NCBI GenBank assembly: GCA_964618645.1
Contig: CAZUBW010000010.1
Span: forward strand, 282-64,281
Direction of reading: 5' to 3'
Origin: an uncultured Bacteroidales bacterium
Lineage (GTDB): Bacteria; Bacteroidota; Bacteroidia; Bacteroidales; UBA10428
DNA length: 64,000 nt
Position numbers and translations under genes: made by a program. Shown piece after piece: positions 2,995 through 36,246 of the stretch. Position 1 is the first letter of the stretch. Every line of letters begins with the position of its first letter. Below the pieces are notes generated by a model. That model saw only the letters and a program-made list of their open reading frames with translations, had not been told where the DNA came from and ran no database searches.

Positions 2995-3263
2995 ATGAAC
3001 CTTGGTTTAGAAAAGAAATAACGACGATTATACAAATAAACAAAAAAGCACCCTTTTTGTTGCCCGGGATACTCTTAAAAAAACTTAAAGTATACCCTTT
3101 TTCATCGTATGGCGGAATATACGCATTTTTTGGCTTATTTCAAAATTTTCAGCGAGTTATGTTACGGCACCAAGGGTATCTGCTTTCCAAATTTTAGGCT
3201 ATCAGTCATTTATAAAACATGATATTTATCAATACTTTTATGGCCGGATAGTCTTTGCTTTGG

Positions 3264-4205
3264 ATGCGAAAAAAAACGAGCAAAAAATATGCCATGAATA
3301 CCAAAAGTGCTTTGTCGGTTTACCTTCCTGTTCTGCTGGCCATGGTGTTCTGGAGCTATAGTTTCATCTGGTATAAAGAGGTGCTTGTTTTTTACCGGCC
3401 CATAGCCCTCATTACCTTCAGACTGGTACTGGCCGTTCCGCTCTTGTTTCTGCTTTCGGTGGCACTGCGAAAGCTGCAGCATATCAAACGCAAAGACCTT
3501 GCCTGGTTTCTGCTACTGGGCTTTTTCGAACCTTTTCTTTATTTCATGGGCGAGTCGTATGGCATGAAACTGGTTTCGCCTACGCTGGCGGCCATTATCA
3601 TTTCACTTATTCCTTTGCTGGCTCCCATTCCGGCATGGTTCATCTTCAGGGAGCGCTTTACCCTTACCAATTACATTGGTTTGTTCATATCGGTAGCCGG
3701 CGTTATACTGGTAATCATGGGCGAAAACACCCATGCTGCAACTTCCCTGGCCGGGGTATTGCTGATGCTGTTGGCAGTTTTTGCGGCCGTGTTGCATTCG
3801 GTGGTCGTTCGTAAACTGGCAGGTCAATACAACTCGTTTACCATTGTCACCTACCAGAGCCTGTTCGGCCTGATCTACTTTCTTCCGCTTTTCGGAATAA
3901 TGGAGTTTTCGGGTTTTATCCAAATCACACACCGCTTTGAAATGGTGTGGCCGGTGGTAAAGTTGGCTGTTTTTGCATCTACCTTTGCCTTTTTATTCTT
4001 TGTGTATTCGATTCAGCGACTGGGCATTGTCCGTACCAATGTATTTGTAAACCTTATACCGGTTTTTACTGCCATATTGTCTTATTTTATCCTGAAGGAA
4101 CAGTTTGGGGTAATGAAAATGGTGGGTATTGCCGTGGTAATTGCCGGATTGGTCTTCAGCCAGCTTAACCGGCGTAGCCGGATGATGAAGAGAAGTGAAT
4201 TGTGA
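3264..4205 (+). CDS. DMT superfamily (EamA-like) transporter
   Basis: About 10 predicted TM helices in two EamA-like halves. The ORF opens at TTG 3255. In-frame ATGs at 3264 and 3294 are both plausible starts. Confidence 0.85.
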   Translation: MRKKTSKKYAMNTKSALSVYLPVLLAMVFWSYSFIWYKEVLVFYRPIALITFRLVLAVPLLFLLSVALRKLQHIKRKDLAWFLLLGFFEPFLYFMGESYGMKLVSPTLAAIIISLIPLLAPIPAWFIFRERFTLTNYIGLFISVAGVILVIMGENTHAATSLAGVLLMLLAVFAAVLHSVVVRKLAGQYNSFTIVTYQSLFGLIYFLPLFGIMEFSGFIQITHRFEMVWPVVKLAVFASTFAFLFFVYSIQRLGIVRTNVFVNLIPVFTAILSYFILKEQFGVMKMVGIAVVIAGLVFSQLNRRSRMMKRSEL

Positions 4206-4398
4206 ATAGTGACGAGAGACGAGTGACGAGTGACGAGTAGCAGCAGCAGTAGCAGCGGCAGTGCTTCGACTCCGCTCAGCATCCATCCAGTATCCAGTAT
4301 CCAGTATCCCGTATCCCGTATCCAGCACCTAGCACCTAGCACCCAGCACCCAGCACCCAGCATCCAGCATCCAGCCCCAACCCCTGCCTAAAGGCAGG
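4204..4398 (+). repeat. modular heptamer-repeat intergenic element, copy A
   Basis: Order of parts: GAATAGTGAC boundary, (TGACGAG)x4, a GCAGCAGC...AGCAGCGGCAGT block, then about 14 tandem CCAGYAY-type 7-mers, then a CCTGCC-TAAA-GGCAGG hairpin. Homologous to 34772-34896 and to the reverse complement of 14904-15184. Confidence 0.85.
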
Positions 4399-4466: not shown

Positions 4467-5165
4467 ATGATACCTTTACGAGATACCATACCTTCACGGA
4501 GCTTTCCCATTGTAAACTGGATCCTTATCCTGTTGAATGCCGGTATTTTCCTGTACGAGGTGTTTATGCTCAACAGCGCCCAGGCTGAACAGATGATTTT
4601 TCGTTACGGTCTGGTACCGGAAAAAATACGCTTCGCGGGAATTGACAGTATTTACGACCTGCGGGTAACGGTTTTCCGTCCTTTTCTGACCAATATGTTC
4701 CTGCATGGCGGGTGGTGGCATCTGATTTCGAACATGTGGATCCTGTTCATTTTCGGAGACAATGTAGAGGACAGGATGGGTAAGGTCAGATACTTTCTGT
4801 TTTATATCCTTTGCGGATTAATAGCCAGTTTTGCCCACTTTGTATTGCACATCAACTCGCCCATTCCGGCCATAGGAGCTTCCGGCGCCATATCGGGTGT
4901 TATGGCGGCCTACATGTTTATGTTTCCAAAAAGCACCATCCTGTCGTTTGTGCCTATTTTCATCATTCCCCTTTTTATTCCCATACCTGCTCTTATTTAC
5001 ATAGGCATATGGTTTCTGGGGCAGCTATGGAGCGGCACAACATCGCTGATGCTGTCGGATAGTGCCACAGGCATAGCCTTTTGGGCGCACATCGGTGGTT
5101 TTGTCGGTGGTTTATTCCTCTACCGGTTGTTCGACAGCTCCAAACGAAAGAGCCATTACCAGTAG
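4467..5165 (+). CDS. rhomboid family intramembrane serine protease
   Basis: Motifs LHGGWWHLISNMWILFIFG, catalytic GASGAISGV, and a later AHIGGFVGG. Six to seven TM helices. Confidence 0.88.
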   Translation: MIPLRDTIPSRSFPIVNWILILLNAGIFLYEVFMLNSAQAEQMIFRYGLVPEKIRFAGIDSIYDLRVTVFRPFLTNMFLHGGWWHLISNMWILFIFGDNVEDRMGKVRYFLFYILCGLIASFAHFVLHINSPIPAIGASGAISGVMAAYMFMFPKSTILSFVPIFIIPLFIPIPALIYIGIWFLGQLWSGTTSLMLSDSATGIAFWAHIGGFVGGLFLYRLFDSSKRKSHYQ

Positions 5166-13719: not shown

Positions 13720-13726
13720 TAACCAA

Positions 13727-13835
13727 CAGCTATTAGCCATTGGCTATTAGCTGTTAGCCAATAGCCAAAGGCTAAAGGCCAAAGGCTAAAGCCTGCCTGA
13801 GCGGCAGCGCAGGCAGGGCTAATAGCTAACGGCTG
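13727..13835. repeat. variant short-repeat/palindromic intergenic element (copy D)
   Basis: GCTAWTAGC-type words occur four times. (CYAAAGG)x4 heptamers sit at about 13764-13792. An 8-bp stem hairpin CCTGCCTG-N10-CAGGCAGG lies at 13792-13817. The element sits between two convergent genes. Confidence 0.7.
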
Positions 13836-13862: not shown

Positions 13863-14804
13863 TCAAACCAGAATGTTGGTTGTAAGGTTGGTGATGCTGG
13901 TTTTGATGGCATCAAAGGGCAATCCGTCCTTGGTTGAGTCCTGTTCAACAATCATGTATTTCATGCCGGCGATGTCTTTGGCAGCCAGAATTTCCTTGAA
14001 ATTAATGACACCGGCGCCCACGGGTGCAAAATCAGTAACCCCGTCGGTCGTATAAAATGGCGCTTCGTTGGTAAACATGTCCTTCATGTGGAAGAGCTGG
14101 AACCTGCCGGGGTATTTGTTAAATATCTCTACGGGGTTCTGGCCTGCCTTGATGGTCCAGAAGAAGTCGATTTCCATGGTTACCAGGTCCTTGTCGAGTT
14201 CGGTCATGAATACATCGAAATAAGGAATTTTACCTTCCACGGTGTCGAATTCGAAGTTGTGGTTGTGATATCCAAACTGGATACCGGTTTCCTTCATGAT
14301 TTTGCCTACCAGGTTCCAGTCGGCCACCATTTTCTGGTAGCTGGCGATGGTGGTCCGGGCTTCGGGCACAACCCAGGGTTGCACGCAATATTTGACGCCC
14401 AGTTTGGCGTGGTCTTCGGCCATTATTTTGGCGTTGTCGAGGGTTATACCTTCGGCTTCAACCTGCGTGTGGCTGCTGATAATTTCCATACCCAGGTCGT
14501 TGACCAGTTTTTTAAAATCGGCTGGTTCCATACCGTAGAATTTCCGGTCGGCATAACCAGCCAGTTCGATGTATTTATACCCCATATCGGCAACTTTTTT
14601 CAGCGAACCGGGTGCGTCAATTCCCATGGCATCGCGAATGGTATATAATTGCAATCCGATGCCGAAAGATTTCGGGTCAACCACCGGACTTTCGGTAACA
14701 GGTTTACCGGCATTCTTGCAGGCAAAATGCGACAGTGTAATCATTCCCAGGGCTCCTGCAGCAGAAACCCTCAGGAAGTCCCTTCGTGAAGTGTTTTGTT
14801 TCAT
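13863..14804 (-). CDS. sugar phosphate isomerase/epimerase (xylose isomerase-like TIM barrel) with Tat signal
   Basis: N-terminal twin-arginine motif SRRDFLRVSAAGALG. The body has the GYKYIELAG, GYHNHNFEF and LFHMKD pattern typical of AP endonuclease 2 / xylose isomerase-like TIM barrel proteins. Confidence 0.85.
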   Translation of the reverse strand: MKQNTSRRDFLRVSAAGALGMITLSHFACKNAGKPVTESPVVDPKSFGIGLQLYTIRDAMGIDAPGSLKKVADMGYKYIELAGYADRKFYGMEPADFKKLVNDLGMEIISSHTQVEAEGITLDNAKIMAEDHAKLGVKYCVQPWVVPEARTTIASYQKMVADWNLVGKIMKETGIQFGYHNHNFEFDTVEGKIPYFDVFMTELDKDLVTMEIDFFWTIKAGQNPVEIFNKYPGRFQLFHMKDMFTNEAPFYTTDGVTDFAPVGAGVINFKEILAAKDIAGMKYMIVEQDSTKDGLPFDAIKTSITNLTTNILV

Positions 14805-14903
14805 CCGTTCTCGATTTATTAAGTTAATAGTTGGTCAAAAAATGAACCCTAAATATAGTACAAAAGTCAATACGGATGGGAAATGCTTTGTTTATTTTGG
14901 CAT

Positions 14904-15194
14904 GCCGGGTGCCGGGTGCTAGGTGCTAGGTGCTGGGTGCTGGGTGCTGGGTGCCGGGTGCTGGATGCTGGGTGCTGGGTACTAGGTGCTGGGTGCTGGG
15001 TGCTGGGTGCTGGGTGCTGGGTACTGGGTGCTGGATGCTGGGTGCTGGGTGCTGGATACTGGCCCCTGACTGCCGCTGCTACTGCCACTGCTACTGCCAC
15101 TGCCACTTTCTTGGCTCTTGCCTCTTGCCTCTTGGTTTTTCTCTTGCTCATTACTCCAACTCTTGCTGATTTTTGTCCCTATTCCTGATTCCTG
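14904..15194 (-). repeat. modular heptamer-repeat intergenic element, copy B (inverted, largest)
   Basis: The plus strand shows about 23 tandem GCTGGGT-type 7-mers (14904-15062), then GCTGCTACTGCCACTGCTACTGCC, then CTCTTGC units. It ends with TTGTCCCTATTC (reverse complement GAATAGGGACAA) and two ATTCCTG units. It is the reverse complement of the architecture of copies A and C. Confidence 0.85.
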
Positions 15195-29768: not shown

Positions 29769-29856
29769 AAAAGTGAAGATTTATGAATAAAATATATAGA
29801 AACTATAATCAATAAATCAACTAATCAACAAATCGAAAGATAAACAGGGATCATAT

Positions 29857-32722: not shown

Positions 32723-33316
32723 ATGCGACATAATAATGCAAAGAATAATTTAGGACGAAAAAGCGCACACCGCAAAGCCATGCTATCCAATATGGCTTCT
32801 TCACTGATCCTTCACAAGCGCATAAAAACCACAACCGCCAAAGCAAAGGCCCTGCGTATTTTTATTGAGCCCATACTTACACGCTCAAAAGAAGACAGTA
32901 CCCATTCACGCCGGTTTGCTTTTTCATACCTGCAGGACAAAGATGCCGTTACTACGCTTTTCAGGGAAGTATCCCCCAAGATTACCGATCGTCCGGGTGG
33001 CTATACCCGTATACTGAAGATCGGAAGTCGTGTGGGTGACGCCGCTGATATGTGTTTTATTGAGCTTGTCGACTTTAACGAAGCCATGCTGGGTGCTGCT
33101 GCCGCTGCTGATAGCAAAACAACACGCCGCAGCCGCAGGGGATCGAAAAAGAAAGCCGAAGGCGAGGAAGCAGCTAAACCCGTTAAAGCTGCCGGAGAAA
33201 AAGAAGTAAAAGCCAAAAAGGCAGCTCCCAAAGCAGCTGAAGAAGAAAAGCAGGCCGGCGACGCCGCTGCTGAACCTTCACCTGAAAACCAGGACGAAGC
33301 TACCGGTAAAGAATAA
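32723..33316 (+). CDS. rplQ: 50S ribosomal protein L17 with Ala/Lys/Glu-rich C-terminal tail (197 aa)
   Basis: [21 protein letters not shown] and GGYTRILK motifs. The last roughly 75 aa are low-complexity A/K/E. Confidence 0.97.
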
Positions 33317-34712: not shown

Positions 34713-34771
34713 CATGCTTTTTGTGCGTAACTTTAAACAAAACAATTGTATAGGTGTTGAATAAGAGGCTA

Positions 34772-34896
34772 GAATAGGGACAAGGGACAAGGGACGAGTA
34801 GCAGCGGCAGTAGCAGCGGCAGTCAGTATCCAGTATCCAGCACCCAGCACCCAGCCCCCAGTATCCAGCACCCAGCACCCAGCACCCAGCATCCAG
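34772..34896 (+). repeat. modular heptamer-repeat intergenic element, copy C
   Basis: GAATAGGGACAA boundary, (GGGACRA)x3, (TAGCAGCGGCAG)x2, then 11 CCAGYAY-type 7-mers ending CCAGCATCCAG. It lies between the eno terminator and gltA. Confidence 0.85.
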
Positions 34897-34926
34897 TAAT
34901 CATTTAACCTTCAAATTCCAAACTCC

Positions 34927-36246
34927 ATGGCCGGATTAAAAGAAACACTCTACGAAAAAATACAGGCCTGGCGGCCGAGAATTAAAAACCTGCTCGATGA
35001 GCACAGTGATGTGGTGGTAGATACCGTTACCATTGGCAAACTCATTGGAGGTATGCGCGACCTCAAATGCCTGGTAACCGATATTTCATACCTCGATCCA
35101 AACGAAGGTATCCGCTACCGGAATTTTACACTCCCCGAACTTTTTAAAAAACTGCCAAAACCCAAAGGTGCCGAAATGCCTTACGTCGAGGGCGTGTTTT
35201 ACCTGCTGCTGACAGGTGATCTTCCTACCCAGGAGAACGTGAGCGATGTGCTTGATGAGTTTAAAAAACGACGGATTTTACCCAGGTATATAATCGAAAT
35301 CATTGATGCTTTTCCAAAGGGGGCGCACCCGATGACTATTTTTTCCGCAGCCATTCTGGCCATGCACCGGGAGTCGTTTTTTGCCCGGAAATACGATGCA
35401 GGGATCAATAAACACGATTACTGGGAACCTACCTACGAGGATGCCATGAACCTCCTGGCAAAGCTTCCTGAAATTGCTGCCTGTATTTACCATAAGCTCT
35501 ACCGCGAAGGAAAACGCGAATTTTCTGATCCCAATCTCGATATGGGGGCCAATTTTGCCCATATGTTGGCGAAAGGAAAGCCTTACGACGATGTTTCGCG
35601 TATGCACTTCATATTGCACAGCGATCACGAAAGTGGAAACGTAAGCGCCCATACCGGGCACCTGGTAGCCAGTTCGCTTTCAGATATCTACCTTTCGATT
35701 TCATCCATGATAAACGGCCTGGCAGGTCCCCTTCACGGTCTGGCCAACCAGGAAGTACTGCGATGGCTCCATGATATAATGGAAAAAATGGGCGGTGAAG
35801 TACCCACCGAAAATGAAATGAAACAGTTTGTGTGGGACCTGCTTAATTCAGGGCAGGTTGTTCCCGGTTTTGGACATGCTGTGTTAAGAATTACCGACCC
35901 GCGGTATACCATTCAGCGTGAATTTGCCCTGAAAAATATGGCCGATGACCCTGTTTTCAAATATGTAGATCTCCTGTATAAAGTAGTACCACCAATTCTA
36001 AAGGAACAGGGCAAGGCTAAAAACCCCTGGCCCAATGTCGACGCACATTCAGGCGCTATTCAATGGTTTTATGGCGTAAGGGAGTACGATTTTTATACGG
36101 TGTTGTTTGGCATAGGCAGGGCCATTGGCATATGTGCCAATATTATATGGGACAGGGCCCTGGGATATCCGCTCGAAAGGCCCAAATCGGTTACCACCGA
36201 AATGCTTGAGAAAATCGCCAGGGGAGAACTTCCGAATGAGGAATAG
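34927..36246 (+). CDS. gltA: citrate synthase
   Basis: Motifs HSDHESGNVSAH, GLAGPLHGLANQEV and VPGFGHAVLR. 439 aa. Confidence 0.95.
   Translation: MAGLKETLYEKIQAWRPRIKNLLDEHSDVVVDTVTIGKLIGGMRDLKCLVTDISYLDPNEGIRYRNFTLPELFKKLPKPKGAEMPYVEGVFYLLLTGDLPTQENVSDVLDEFKKRRILPRYIIEIIDAFPKGAHPMTIFSAAILAMHRESFFARKYDAGINKHDYWEPTYEDAMNLLAKLPEIAACIYHKLYREGKREFSDPNLDMGANFAHMLAKGKPYDDVSRMHFILHSDHESGNVSAHTGHLVASSLSDIYLSISSMINGLAGPLHGLANQEVLRWLHDIMEKMGGEVPTENEMKQFVWDLLNSGQVVPGFGHAVLRITDPRYTIQREFALKNMADDPVFKYVDLLYKVVPPILKEQGKAKNPWPNVDAHSGAIQWFYGVREYDFYTVLFGIGRAIGICANIIWDRALGYPLERPKSVTTEMLEKIARGELPNEE

Follow-up and report, generated by a model that had tools for sequence, protein, structure and literature searches.

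The window, a 64,000-nucleotide stretch of contig CAZUBW010000010.1 from the uncultured Bacteroidales assembly GCA_964618645.1, contains three intergenic composite arrays of short tandem units: copy A at 4194-4398 (+), copy B at 34772-34899 (+) and copy C at 14903-15194 (-). Copy A lies between an EamA/DMT transporter gene (stop codon 4203-4205) and a rhomboid gene (ATG at 4467). Copy B follows the enolase gene with its terminator hairpin and precedes the citrate synthase gene, gltA (ATG at 34927). At locus C, rpsL (+) is divergent from the array, which precedes an AP_endonuc_2/xylose-isomerase-like gene on the minus strand (ATG at 14804). Pfam analysis confirmed the flanking genes and positions given in an initial annotation of this DNA. 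All three arrays lie between Pfam-confirmed genes, and the only overlap with coding sequence is the first module of copy A.

Tandem Repeats Finder (TRF) identified period-7 arrays at 4208-4238, 4285-4379, 14903-15055, 15109-15134, 34776-34795 and 34837-34896, with 4-22 copies and 86-94% matches. Between them lie period-6/12 arrays at 4236-4262, 15069-15107 and 34797-34823; period 7 was also detected at the start of copy A (4194-4212). The order of modules is the same throughout: module 0 (M0) consists of xxxGAAT units, module 1 (M1) of AGTGACG or AGGGACA units with additional CAAGAGG/C units in copy C, and module 2 (M2) of 12-mers with the end AGTAGCAGCGGC-AGT. A non-repeated filler of 0-24 nt separates M2 from module 3 (M3), which always starts with CAGTAT-CCAG and continues chiefly with CCAGCAC. 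The parts of the three copies, and two features next to copy B, are as follows.

4194-4207 (+): copy A, M0, AGTGAAT TGTGAAT, overlapping the last four EamA codons and the TGA stop.
4208-4235 (+): copy A, M1, AGTGACG AGAGACG AGTGACG AGTGACG, purine-rich, with TGA in three frames.
4236-4262 (+): copy A, M2, (AGTAGCAGCAGC)(AGTAGCAGCGGC)AGT, a 6/12-nt repeat.
4263-4286 (+): copy A, non-repeated 24-nt insert separating M2 and M3.
4287-4379 (+): copy A, M3, 13 heptamers in the series CCAGTATx3 CCCGTATx2 CCAGCAC CTAGCACx2 CCAGCACx2 CCAGCATx2 CCAGCCC.
4383-4398 (+): hairpin behind copy A, CCTGCC-TAAA-GGCAGG, not followed by a T-run and absent from copies B and C.
34728-34742 (+): TAACTTTAAACAAAA box upstream of copy B, conserved in four species.
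34772-34796 (+): copy B, GAAT and M1, AGGGACA AGGGACA AGGGACG.
34797-34823 (+): copy B, M2, (AGTAGCAGCGGC)x2 AGT.
34824-34899 (+): copy B, M3, 11 CCAGYAY-type heptamers with the end CCAGCAT CCAGTAA, 27 nt from the gltA ATG.
34906-34926 (+): decayed older array abutting the gltA ATG, AACCTTC AAATTCC AAACTCC.
15181-15194 (-): copy C, M0, CAGGAAT CAGGAAT.
15107-15180 (-): copy C, M1, AGGGACA, a degenerate stretch, then CAAGAGG CAAGAGG CAAGAGC CAAGAAA.
15069-15106 (-): copy C, M2, GTGGCAGTGGCAGTAGCAGTGGCAGTAGCAGCGGCAGT.
14903-15062 (-): copy C, M3, 23 CCAGYAY-type heptamers, mostly CCAGCAC, 98 nt from the AP_endonuc_2 ATG.

The initial annotation had proposed that these are three copies of one homologous family, with the same module order and junction strings, rather than independent microsatellites. 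Inspection of the sequence, TRF and pattern counts exceeding those in shuffled sequence all bore this out. The strings at the M0/M1, M1/M2 and M2/M3 junctions are common to the three copies: GAATAG(G/T)GAC and AGTAGCAGCGGCAGT occur in A, B and C, and GACGAGTAGCAGC in A and B. The first of these had been described as the 5' boundary of the element; the string is indeed shared by all three copies, but its GAAT forms the end of an additional heptamer module, M0 (AGTGAAT TGTGAAT in A and CAGGAAT CAGGAAT in C). No common 3' end was found among copies A, B and C. The unit series previously listed for M3 of copy A was exact, whereas the reported (TGACGAG)x4 consists of three perfect units and AGACGAG.

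With up to one mismatch allowed, CCAGYAYCCAGYAY matched 40 times in the window (0.15 expected from shuffles), and 39 of these matches were inside the three arrays. For AGCAGCGGCAGT, also with up to one mismatch, there were seven matches (0.22 expected), six of them in arrays. The possibility that the boundary strings recur by chance was addressed with GAATAGNGAC, which was found three times compared to 0.31 expected, once at the 5' edge of every array. Variant units adjoin their own duplicates, such as CCCGTATx2 and CTAGCACx2 in copy A, and identical variants side by side are a signature of local duplication by slippage. A further stretch at 33086-33109 (-), AGCAGCGGCAGCACCCAGCAT, resembles the M2/M3 junction, but is antisense to the coding sequence for the tail of ribosomal protein L17 and was dropped as a family junction. 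This 197-aa L17 has a low-complexity C-terminal tail rich in Ala, Lys and Glu, the length of which differs among relatives (173-203 aa).

The elements are non-coding, as had been suggested previously. The accompanying statement that every frame is open across the arrays was incorrect: M0 and M1 close the three reading frames in copies A and B, and CTAGCAC units place TAG in the last module of A and C.

For a comparison within the species, we used Logan contigs that were assembled from short reads of more than 10 runs and found by exact-protein look-up. Runs in which this organism is present include SRR8925735, SRR27370447 and SRR30104876-81. These contigs encode identical rhomboid, AP_endonuc_2 and S12 proteins and a citrate synthase one residue different from that in the window; exact-protein look-ups with the window's own enolase, EamA and citrate synthase returned no match. 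Every such contig terminates inside array A, B or C (L001, L002, L169-L180, L315-L320). The repeat numbers in the window are those of the assembly, and with contigs breaking in the arrays our comparisons concern unit series and junctions rather than total repeat number. One contig (L176) has M0-M2 of copy C identical to the window, and another (L317) reproduces the last units of copy B. Since the same junctions were recovered in independent short-read contigs, the arrays are not assembly artefacts.

The strain comparison called for in the initial annotation revealed differences at two loci. At locus B, the unit series ahead of the constant CCAGTAATCATTT flank differ among contigs with the same citrate synthase protein: CCAGTATx3 CCAGCAC in L315, CCAGCACx3 in L316 and L320, a CTAGCAC-rich series in L318, and a series equal to that of the window in L317. 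At locus C, contig L172 retains the window's flank, 5' boundary, M0 and start of M1, while its interior is remodelled, with a partial duplication, additional modules, another filler and CCCAGCAC units. Five further contigs stop precisely at the point where L172 diverges from the haplotype of L176 and the window. The arrays are thus systematic breakpoints of short-read metagenome assemblies of this organism and are therefore under-represented in collections of metagenome-assembled genomes (MAGs).

The same contigs also differ 6.6-11 kb downstream of gltA (window ~41.5-46 kb), where gene content in L315 is unlike that in L316 and L317 despite the same citrate synthase. The differing region is downstream of a HisKA/response-regulator gene. 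An HTH_3 gene and its neighbor are present or absent there, and L316 runs on with TolB_like, Peptidase_S26 and LytTR genes instead.

The gltA leader allowed us to follow an array across species. The closest citrate synthases are from MAGs annotated as Bacteroidales bacterium, and the context of the window includes SusC-like and DUF4249 genes. Three sister species, with citrate synthases 92, 91 and 87% identical (L321 = GCA_002415855.1, L326 and L329, respectively), keep the enolase-gltA synteny, and the blocks TAACTTTAAACAAA and (C/G)GTGTT upstream of gltA are conserved in all four species. The M0-M3 block is absent upstream of gltA in the three sister species. Instead, each has its own G-free heptamer array reaching up to the gltA ATG, downstream of the conserved promoter-like box: (AATTCCC)(AATTCAC)(AATTCAT)3, (AATTCAT)7, and (CTTAAAA)4 (CTCATAA)2 (TTCATAA). 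The decayed array at 34906-34926 in the window is homologous to the (AATTCAY)n of the sister species. Together, the decayed array and the arrays in the sisters show that an array has been present in the gltA leader throughout the clade, that the window's species added M0-M3 upstream of this older array, and that array sequence drifts within the clade. Rapid turnover between strains contrasts with the long time over which four species have kept some heptamer array in their gltA leader.

Bacteroidetes promoters have a -7 box with the consensus TAnnTTTG, which the conserved TAACTTTA at locus B resembles. The TAACTTTAAACAAAA box probably represents the -7 promoter box together with the gltA transcription start, and copy B would then most likely be part of a gltA 5' untranslated region (UTR) of ~185 nt; both assignments were made from sequence. 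A sigma-70 promoter scan was uninformative for this phylum. Copy A begins inside the EamA stop codon and is presumably at least 3' UTR or intercistronic RNA. A TATATTTA box separates array and gene at both A and C.

Another leader in the window, that of infA, contains a G-free 8-nt tandem repeat, (AAATCAAC)x3.5, at 29807-29834, ~20 nt ahead of the start codon. This repeat is kept nearly base for base in L329 (4894-4922), the species with only 87% identity in citrate synthase. Two closer relatives have a map-infA spacer of 11-21 nt and lack the repeat, which may serve as a functional leader.

To see how widely the family occurs, we searched 185,579 species representatives with a pattern for the M2/M3 junction. 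This yielded 89 stretches, of which 87 were chance matches in coding DNA. The two true family members are both from Bacteroidales, L075 (MAG CWP6-1.bin.98) and L140 (SRP192927_co6_439), and have the same junctions as copies A, B and C. L075 contains ATAGGGACGAGTAGCAGCGGCAG...GGCAGT...CCAGCAT units and reads ...CAAGAGTCAAGATAGGGACGAGTAGCAGCGGCAG...GGCAGT-28 nt-CCAGCAT units, spanning its spacer from the stop codon to 17 nt ahead of the next ATG; L140 contains CAAGAGCC...(GCAGYR)n GGCAGT...CCAGCAT units. A stricter pattern run on metagenome contigs gave six loci, comprising five (GGCAGT)n-(CCAGYAT)n composites from other, GC-richer organisms and one chance match. The GC-rich, non-Bacteroidales contig L163 (SDBU01037216.1) has several long composites at 3150-4272, in which (GGCAGT)n, (CCAGCAT)n and (CCAACAT)n are mixed with ACCAATG/ACCAGTC units resembling cyanobacterial STRR2 (see below). 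It also contains two near-duplicate blocks 1 kb apart.

In the IMG/VR viral collection, (CCAGYAY)3 was found in 71 stretches, several of which are composite heptamer arrays with their end just ahead of a start codon (L004, L008, L013, L049, L050 and L064). The other words of the window, (GTGACRA)3 and (CAAGAGS)3, gave 73 and 33 stretches, respectively. The scrambled controls (CACAGYY)3 and (TGGCARA)3 gave 43 and 18, making the window's words only 2-4 times commoner than scrambled ones. Nor do the words travel together: GTGACRA arrays were beside CCAGYAY arrays in one of 76 cases, and CAAGAGS arrays in none of 33. With arrays of arbitrary heptamers being common and the words failing to co-occur, the data point to a generic array-generating process, i.e., slippage favoring 7-nt units, rather than to word-specific machinery. 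The idea of a sequence-specific machinery acting on a shared vocabulary was correspondingly weakened by the scrambled controls and by the lack of co-occurrence outside the Bacteroidales family. The fixed M0-M3 block is a feature of a Bacteroidales lineage, while composite heptamer arrays as such are widespread.

The (GTGACRA)n arrays in IMG/VR (L330-L401) are common, on viral contigs that differ widely in GC content. Many start at or just after a stop codon (19 versus 9 in a mirrored count), and in 14 of 76 cases an inverted copy lies downstream, giving terminator-like hairpins built of heptamers.

In each of the five family members (A, B, C, L075 and L140), CCAGYAY is on the sense strand of the following gene, in agreement with the initial annotation, which had noted this for the three copies in the window. 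The two strands of M3 are very different. Across 326 nt, the sense strand contains no ATG, GTG or TTG, while the antisense strand contains 5 ATG and 27 GTG; similarly, the (AATTCAT)7 array of one sister species has 7 ATG in the antisense direction and no start codon in the sense direction. In RNA folding, the sense strand of M3 gave -2.9, -2.3 and -14.2 kcal/mol for copies A, B and C, compared to -24.5, -26.8 and -82.1 kcal/mol, respectively, for the antisense strand. A reversed array would form a strongly structured, start-codon-rich leader, and this offers a simple reason for the orientation seen in the five family members. Folding of the complete elements is worse than that of dinucleotide shuffles (z = +0.97, +2.49 and +3.53), and a search of the whole window against Rfam 15 gave no matches at gathering score; a known RNA family or RNA structure was dropped as a candidate on these grounds. 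The ribosomes of Bacteroidia disregard the Shine-Dalgarno sequence, mRNA structure tunes initiation, and AUG is depleted near start codons (PMC6847099).

On balance, we consider it likely, if far from certain, that the arrays are STRR-like composite simple-sequence repeats that are driven by slippage, copied between loci and constrained in orientation as leader spacers. Repeat structure, homology of the copies, strain polymorphism, species turnover and strand asymmetry in folding and start codons are direct observations. The 7-nt units, and the one 6/12-nt module, would arise and turn over through replication slippage or unequal exchange, which would produce the runs of identical variant units and the rapid differences between strains. 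The identical junction strings at unrelated loci would be explained by copying of the whole block (xxxGAAT, AGNGACR/CAAGAGS, AGTAGCAGCGGC and CCAGYAY units) from one locus to another, most likely by recombination or gene conversion between arrays. The arrays would be located in transcribed spacers: A behind a stop codon, B in a 5' leader and C upstream of a start codon. They would persist only in the orientation that places start-codon-free, nearly unstructured RNA beside the downstream start, because Shine-Dalgarno-independent initiation in Bacteroidia demands such a leader. As leader spacers, the arrays would be inert or mildly expression-tuning, possibly acting as ribosome standby tracts, with spacer length and content drifting from strain to strain.

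Several observations weigh against this explanation. The promoter at locus B was assigned by conservation only, and arrays A and C, with the TATATTTA box between array and gene, may precede the promoter rather than lie in the leader. The orientation bias comes from five family members, and the CCAGYAY arrays of IMG/VR show only a trend, 9 versus 3 with a start codon within 40 nt. That figure is from a strict recount, which replaced an earlier ORF-based count with excessive noise on GC-rich contigs. GTG and TTG are present in the G-rich modules 0-2, limiting the start-codon-free status to the last module. Finally, the persistence of arrays in the gltA leader over 87-92% protein identity may signal selection beyond that expected for a tolerated spacer.

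One might go further and suppose that 7-nt-periodic, G-poor, start-codon-free tracts are a selected class of leader in the Shine-Dalgarno-blind Bacteroidales, serving as a standby site or as a platform for single-strand-binding proteins. Periodicity and lack of structure would then be maintained, rather than sequence, and the M0-M3 block would be a cassette spreading between leaders. This extension is speculative, but if it is true, slippage would turn the element into a rheostat, built in and specific to the strain, for housekeeping genes such as gltA.

Explanations in terms of bound proteins, G-quadruplexes (G4) or mobile elements are weaker than that of a leader spacer. It appears rather unlikely that the arrays are protein-binding arrays, in which a single-strand nucleic-acid-binding protein (cold-shock/OB-fold, S1 or RRM) would occupy the units with one domain per 7 nt and the downstream genes would form a post-transcriptional regulon. 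The strict 7-nt period, the unstructured single-stranded sense RNA and the placement ahead of start codons are consistent with this model, as are the persistence of the gltA-leader array in four species and the conserved module order. According to work cited in PMC4679880, CspB binds heptamer repeats with one protein per unit. However, strains vary in unit sequence and species have wholly different units at the same locus, which is difficult to square with sequence-specific recognition. Furthermore, arrays of scrambled heptamers are nearly as frequent, and the window shows no candidate protein linked to the arrays.

Structured DNA had also been put forward in the initial annotation, and is a plausible description of copy C only. 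In this model, transcription would be modulated by G4 DNA of the antisense (GGGTGCT)n, which is on the template strand, or by an i-motif of the C-rich strand. The CCAGCAC unit supplies one CCC/GGG tract per 7 nt, for a total of 6, 6 and 16 tracts in A, B and C, respectively. Copy C contains the only two canonical (G3N1-7)x4 motifs in the window (+ strand, 14935-14958 and 14991-15028; 0.48 expected), and the G-rich strand is the non-coding one upstream of the ORF in all three copies, which is the placement rule of Rehm 2015. On the other hand, copies A and B never exceed three G3 tracts in succession when loops are limited to 7 nt. The CCAGTAT and CCAGCAT units, the predominant ones in L075, L140 and the strain variants, contain just GG, and the gltA arrays of the sister species (AATTCAT, CTTAAAA) lack G or C tracts altogether. 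We thus regard a G4 or i-motif function for the family as unlikely.

Promoter spacing or phase variation, likewise proposed earlier, seems quite unlikely to be the role of the arrays. The model for such a contingency locus is the (ATCTTTC)n repeat in the 5' UTR of Haemophilus influenzae hmw1A/hmw2A, whose function needs a long hairpin between the repeat and a G-rich arm as well as RNase III (PMC12721329, PMC8262952). The hmw1A tract is transcribed, and expression is inversely proportional to tract length (PMC12721329). As in hmw1A/hmw2A, copy B is a heptanucleotide repeat between a probable promoter and the ATG; the hmw repeat is transcribed in that position and has a strain-variable copy number, and the window's arrays likewise vary among strains. 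However, no long hairpin is predicted in the window, where the elements fold worse than shuffles; the same folds gave no support to an hmw-like pairing of the G-rich 5' modules with the C-rich 3' module. Furthermore, the genes downstream encode housekeeping functions (citrate synthase, rhomboid and a sugar-phosphate isomerase-like enzyme) rather than adhesins or other surface and host-interaction proteins, and array B is downstream of the conserved promoter-like box.

A non-autonomous mobile element, similar to a miniature inverted-repeat transposable element (MITE) or a repetitive extragenic palindromic (REP) sequence, with GAATAG(G/T)GAC as its 5' end and the repeats as internal cargo, would account for junction strings that are identical at three unrelated loci and recur in other MAGs, and for the missing element in the orthologous gltA spacer of the sister species. 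We nevertheless consider it very unlikely. Such elements have inverted repeats or a palindrome, constant ends and a target duplication. No terminal inverted repeats or target duplications were found at A, B or C: there are no inverted repeats flanking A, B has only the enolase terminator, and C has two weak AT-rich pairs. The copies share no common 3' end, the supposed 5' end belongs to a heptamer series that differs between them, no stable fold is predicted, and there is no transposase nearby. A related idea, that phages act as vectors, was dropped after the M2 17-mer and the M1/M2 junction matched IMG/VR at 134 places, all Ser-rich coding DNA and none adjoining heptamer arrays. The same result speaks against a mobile element.

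That the family is a coding repeat or an assembly artefact is highly improbable: copy C is traversed by a 94-aa ORF (14867-15151, minus strand) and 7-nt arrays give the same heptapeptide in every frame, but the first modules of A and B have stops in all frames, B has no start codon, the copies have no ORF in common, and independent assemblies reproduce the junctions.

A fourth heptamer region is found at 13720-13835, between convergent genes. Its TAGCCAA/AGGCTAA-type units flank, on both sides, a hairpin of AGCCTGCCTG-agcggcagcg-CAGGCAGGGCT, the arms of which are partly palindromic. This region is probably a bidirectional terminator. A CCTGCC/GGCAGG stem motif is common to it and to the hairpin behind copy A.

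Heptanucleotide arrays belong to the long simple-sequence repeats with units of 5-11 nt, which are arranged head-to-tail and are longer than expected by chance, with slippage favoring 7-nt units (Mrazek 2007, as summarized in PMC4679880 and PMC4692102). Both TRF and the pattern search showed the window's arrays to have head-to-tail units in this range. They are confined to non-coding DNA, copy A module 0 aside, and are polymorphic among close relatives at loci B and C.

Rehm 2015 (PMC4692102) described GGGNATC and GGGGA(C/T)T heptamers in Xanthomonas and Nostoc, for which a G4 or i-motif was proposed and function left unresolved. Like the window's arrays, the GGGNATC repeats are intergenic tandem heptamers with one G/C tract per unit and housekeeping neighbors, at loci that are stable while length and sequence vary widely among relatives. 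The G-rich strand of GGGNATC repeats is non-coding close upstream of ORFs and coding just after or overlapping stops; the G-rich strand is also the non-coding one at all three copies, 27-98 nt from the ATG, and in L075 and L140. In contrast to the GGGNATC repeats, the window's units are CCAGYAY, with a C3 tract only in CCAGCAC, there is no preference for four units, and a canonical G4 motif is present in copy C only. The window's arrays are also composite, with a fixed order of three or four modules that includes 6/12-nt units, and are found in a Bacteroidales host.

MacGregor 2015 (PMC4679880) reported arrays of TAACTGA and other heptamers in Beggiatoaceae, cyanobacteria and five Bacteroidetes, including intergenic assemblages of several heptamers, and proposed a protein-bound regulon for TAACTGA. 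The earlier statement that no equivalent had been described in Bacteroidota was thus mistaken, and the initial interpretation is partly supported, as to the family but not its novelty in the phylum. As in our case, TAACTGA repeats have a "forward" orientation before start codons, relatives lack arrays at the same site, further heptamers occur in the same spacer (Gramella, Aequorivita and Elizabethkingia), contigs break in the repeats, and housekeeping genes lie downstream. The TAACTGA unit is absent from copies A, B and C, and none of the window's units are in the supplement of PMC4679880. The window's arrays also differ in lying 27-98 nt from the ATG, compared to a few nt, and in sharing conserved junctions between loci. 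An orientation rule with genome-wide numbers has been reported for other heptamers (PMC4679880, PMC4692102).

The analogy drawn previously with the short tandemly repeated repetitive (STRR) sequences is a fair one. The STRR units are CCCCAGT (STRR1), TTGGTCA (STRR2) and CAACAGT (STRR3), with ~100 copies per genome. They were reportedly described in 1990 by Mazel and colleagues as tandem heptanucleotide families in the intergenic DNA of heterocystous cyanobacteria. Like the window's arrays, they are dispersed intergenic tandem heptanucleotides with one C-rich, G-poor strand (e.g., CCCCAGT). However, the window's units (CCAGYAY, AGNGACR, CAAGAGS and GCAGYR) are not STRR units, the host is a member of the Bacteroidales rather than a heterocystous cyanobacterium, and a conserved multi-module order is outside the STRR definition. 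Heptanucleotide repeat arrays as a class are thus already known, with their function still unexplained. New here are a multi-module block of fixed order whose junctions are conserved and which has been copied to several loci within a Bacteroidales lineage, the series of strain- and species-level turnover at gltA, and the asymmetry in start codons and structure as a rationale for orientation.

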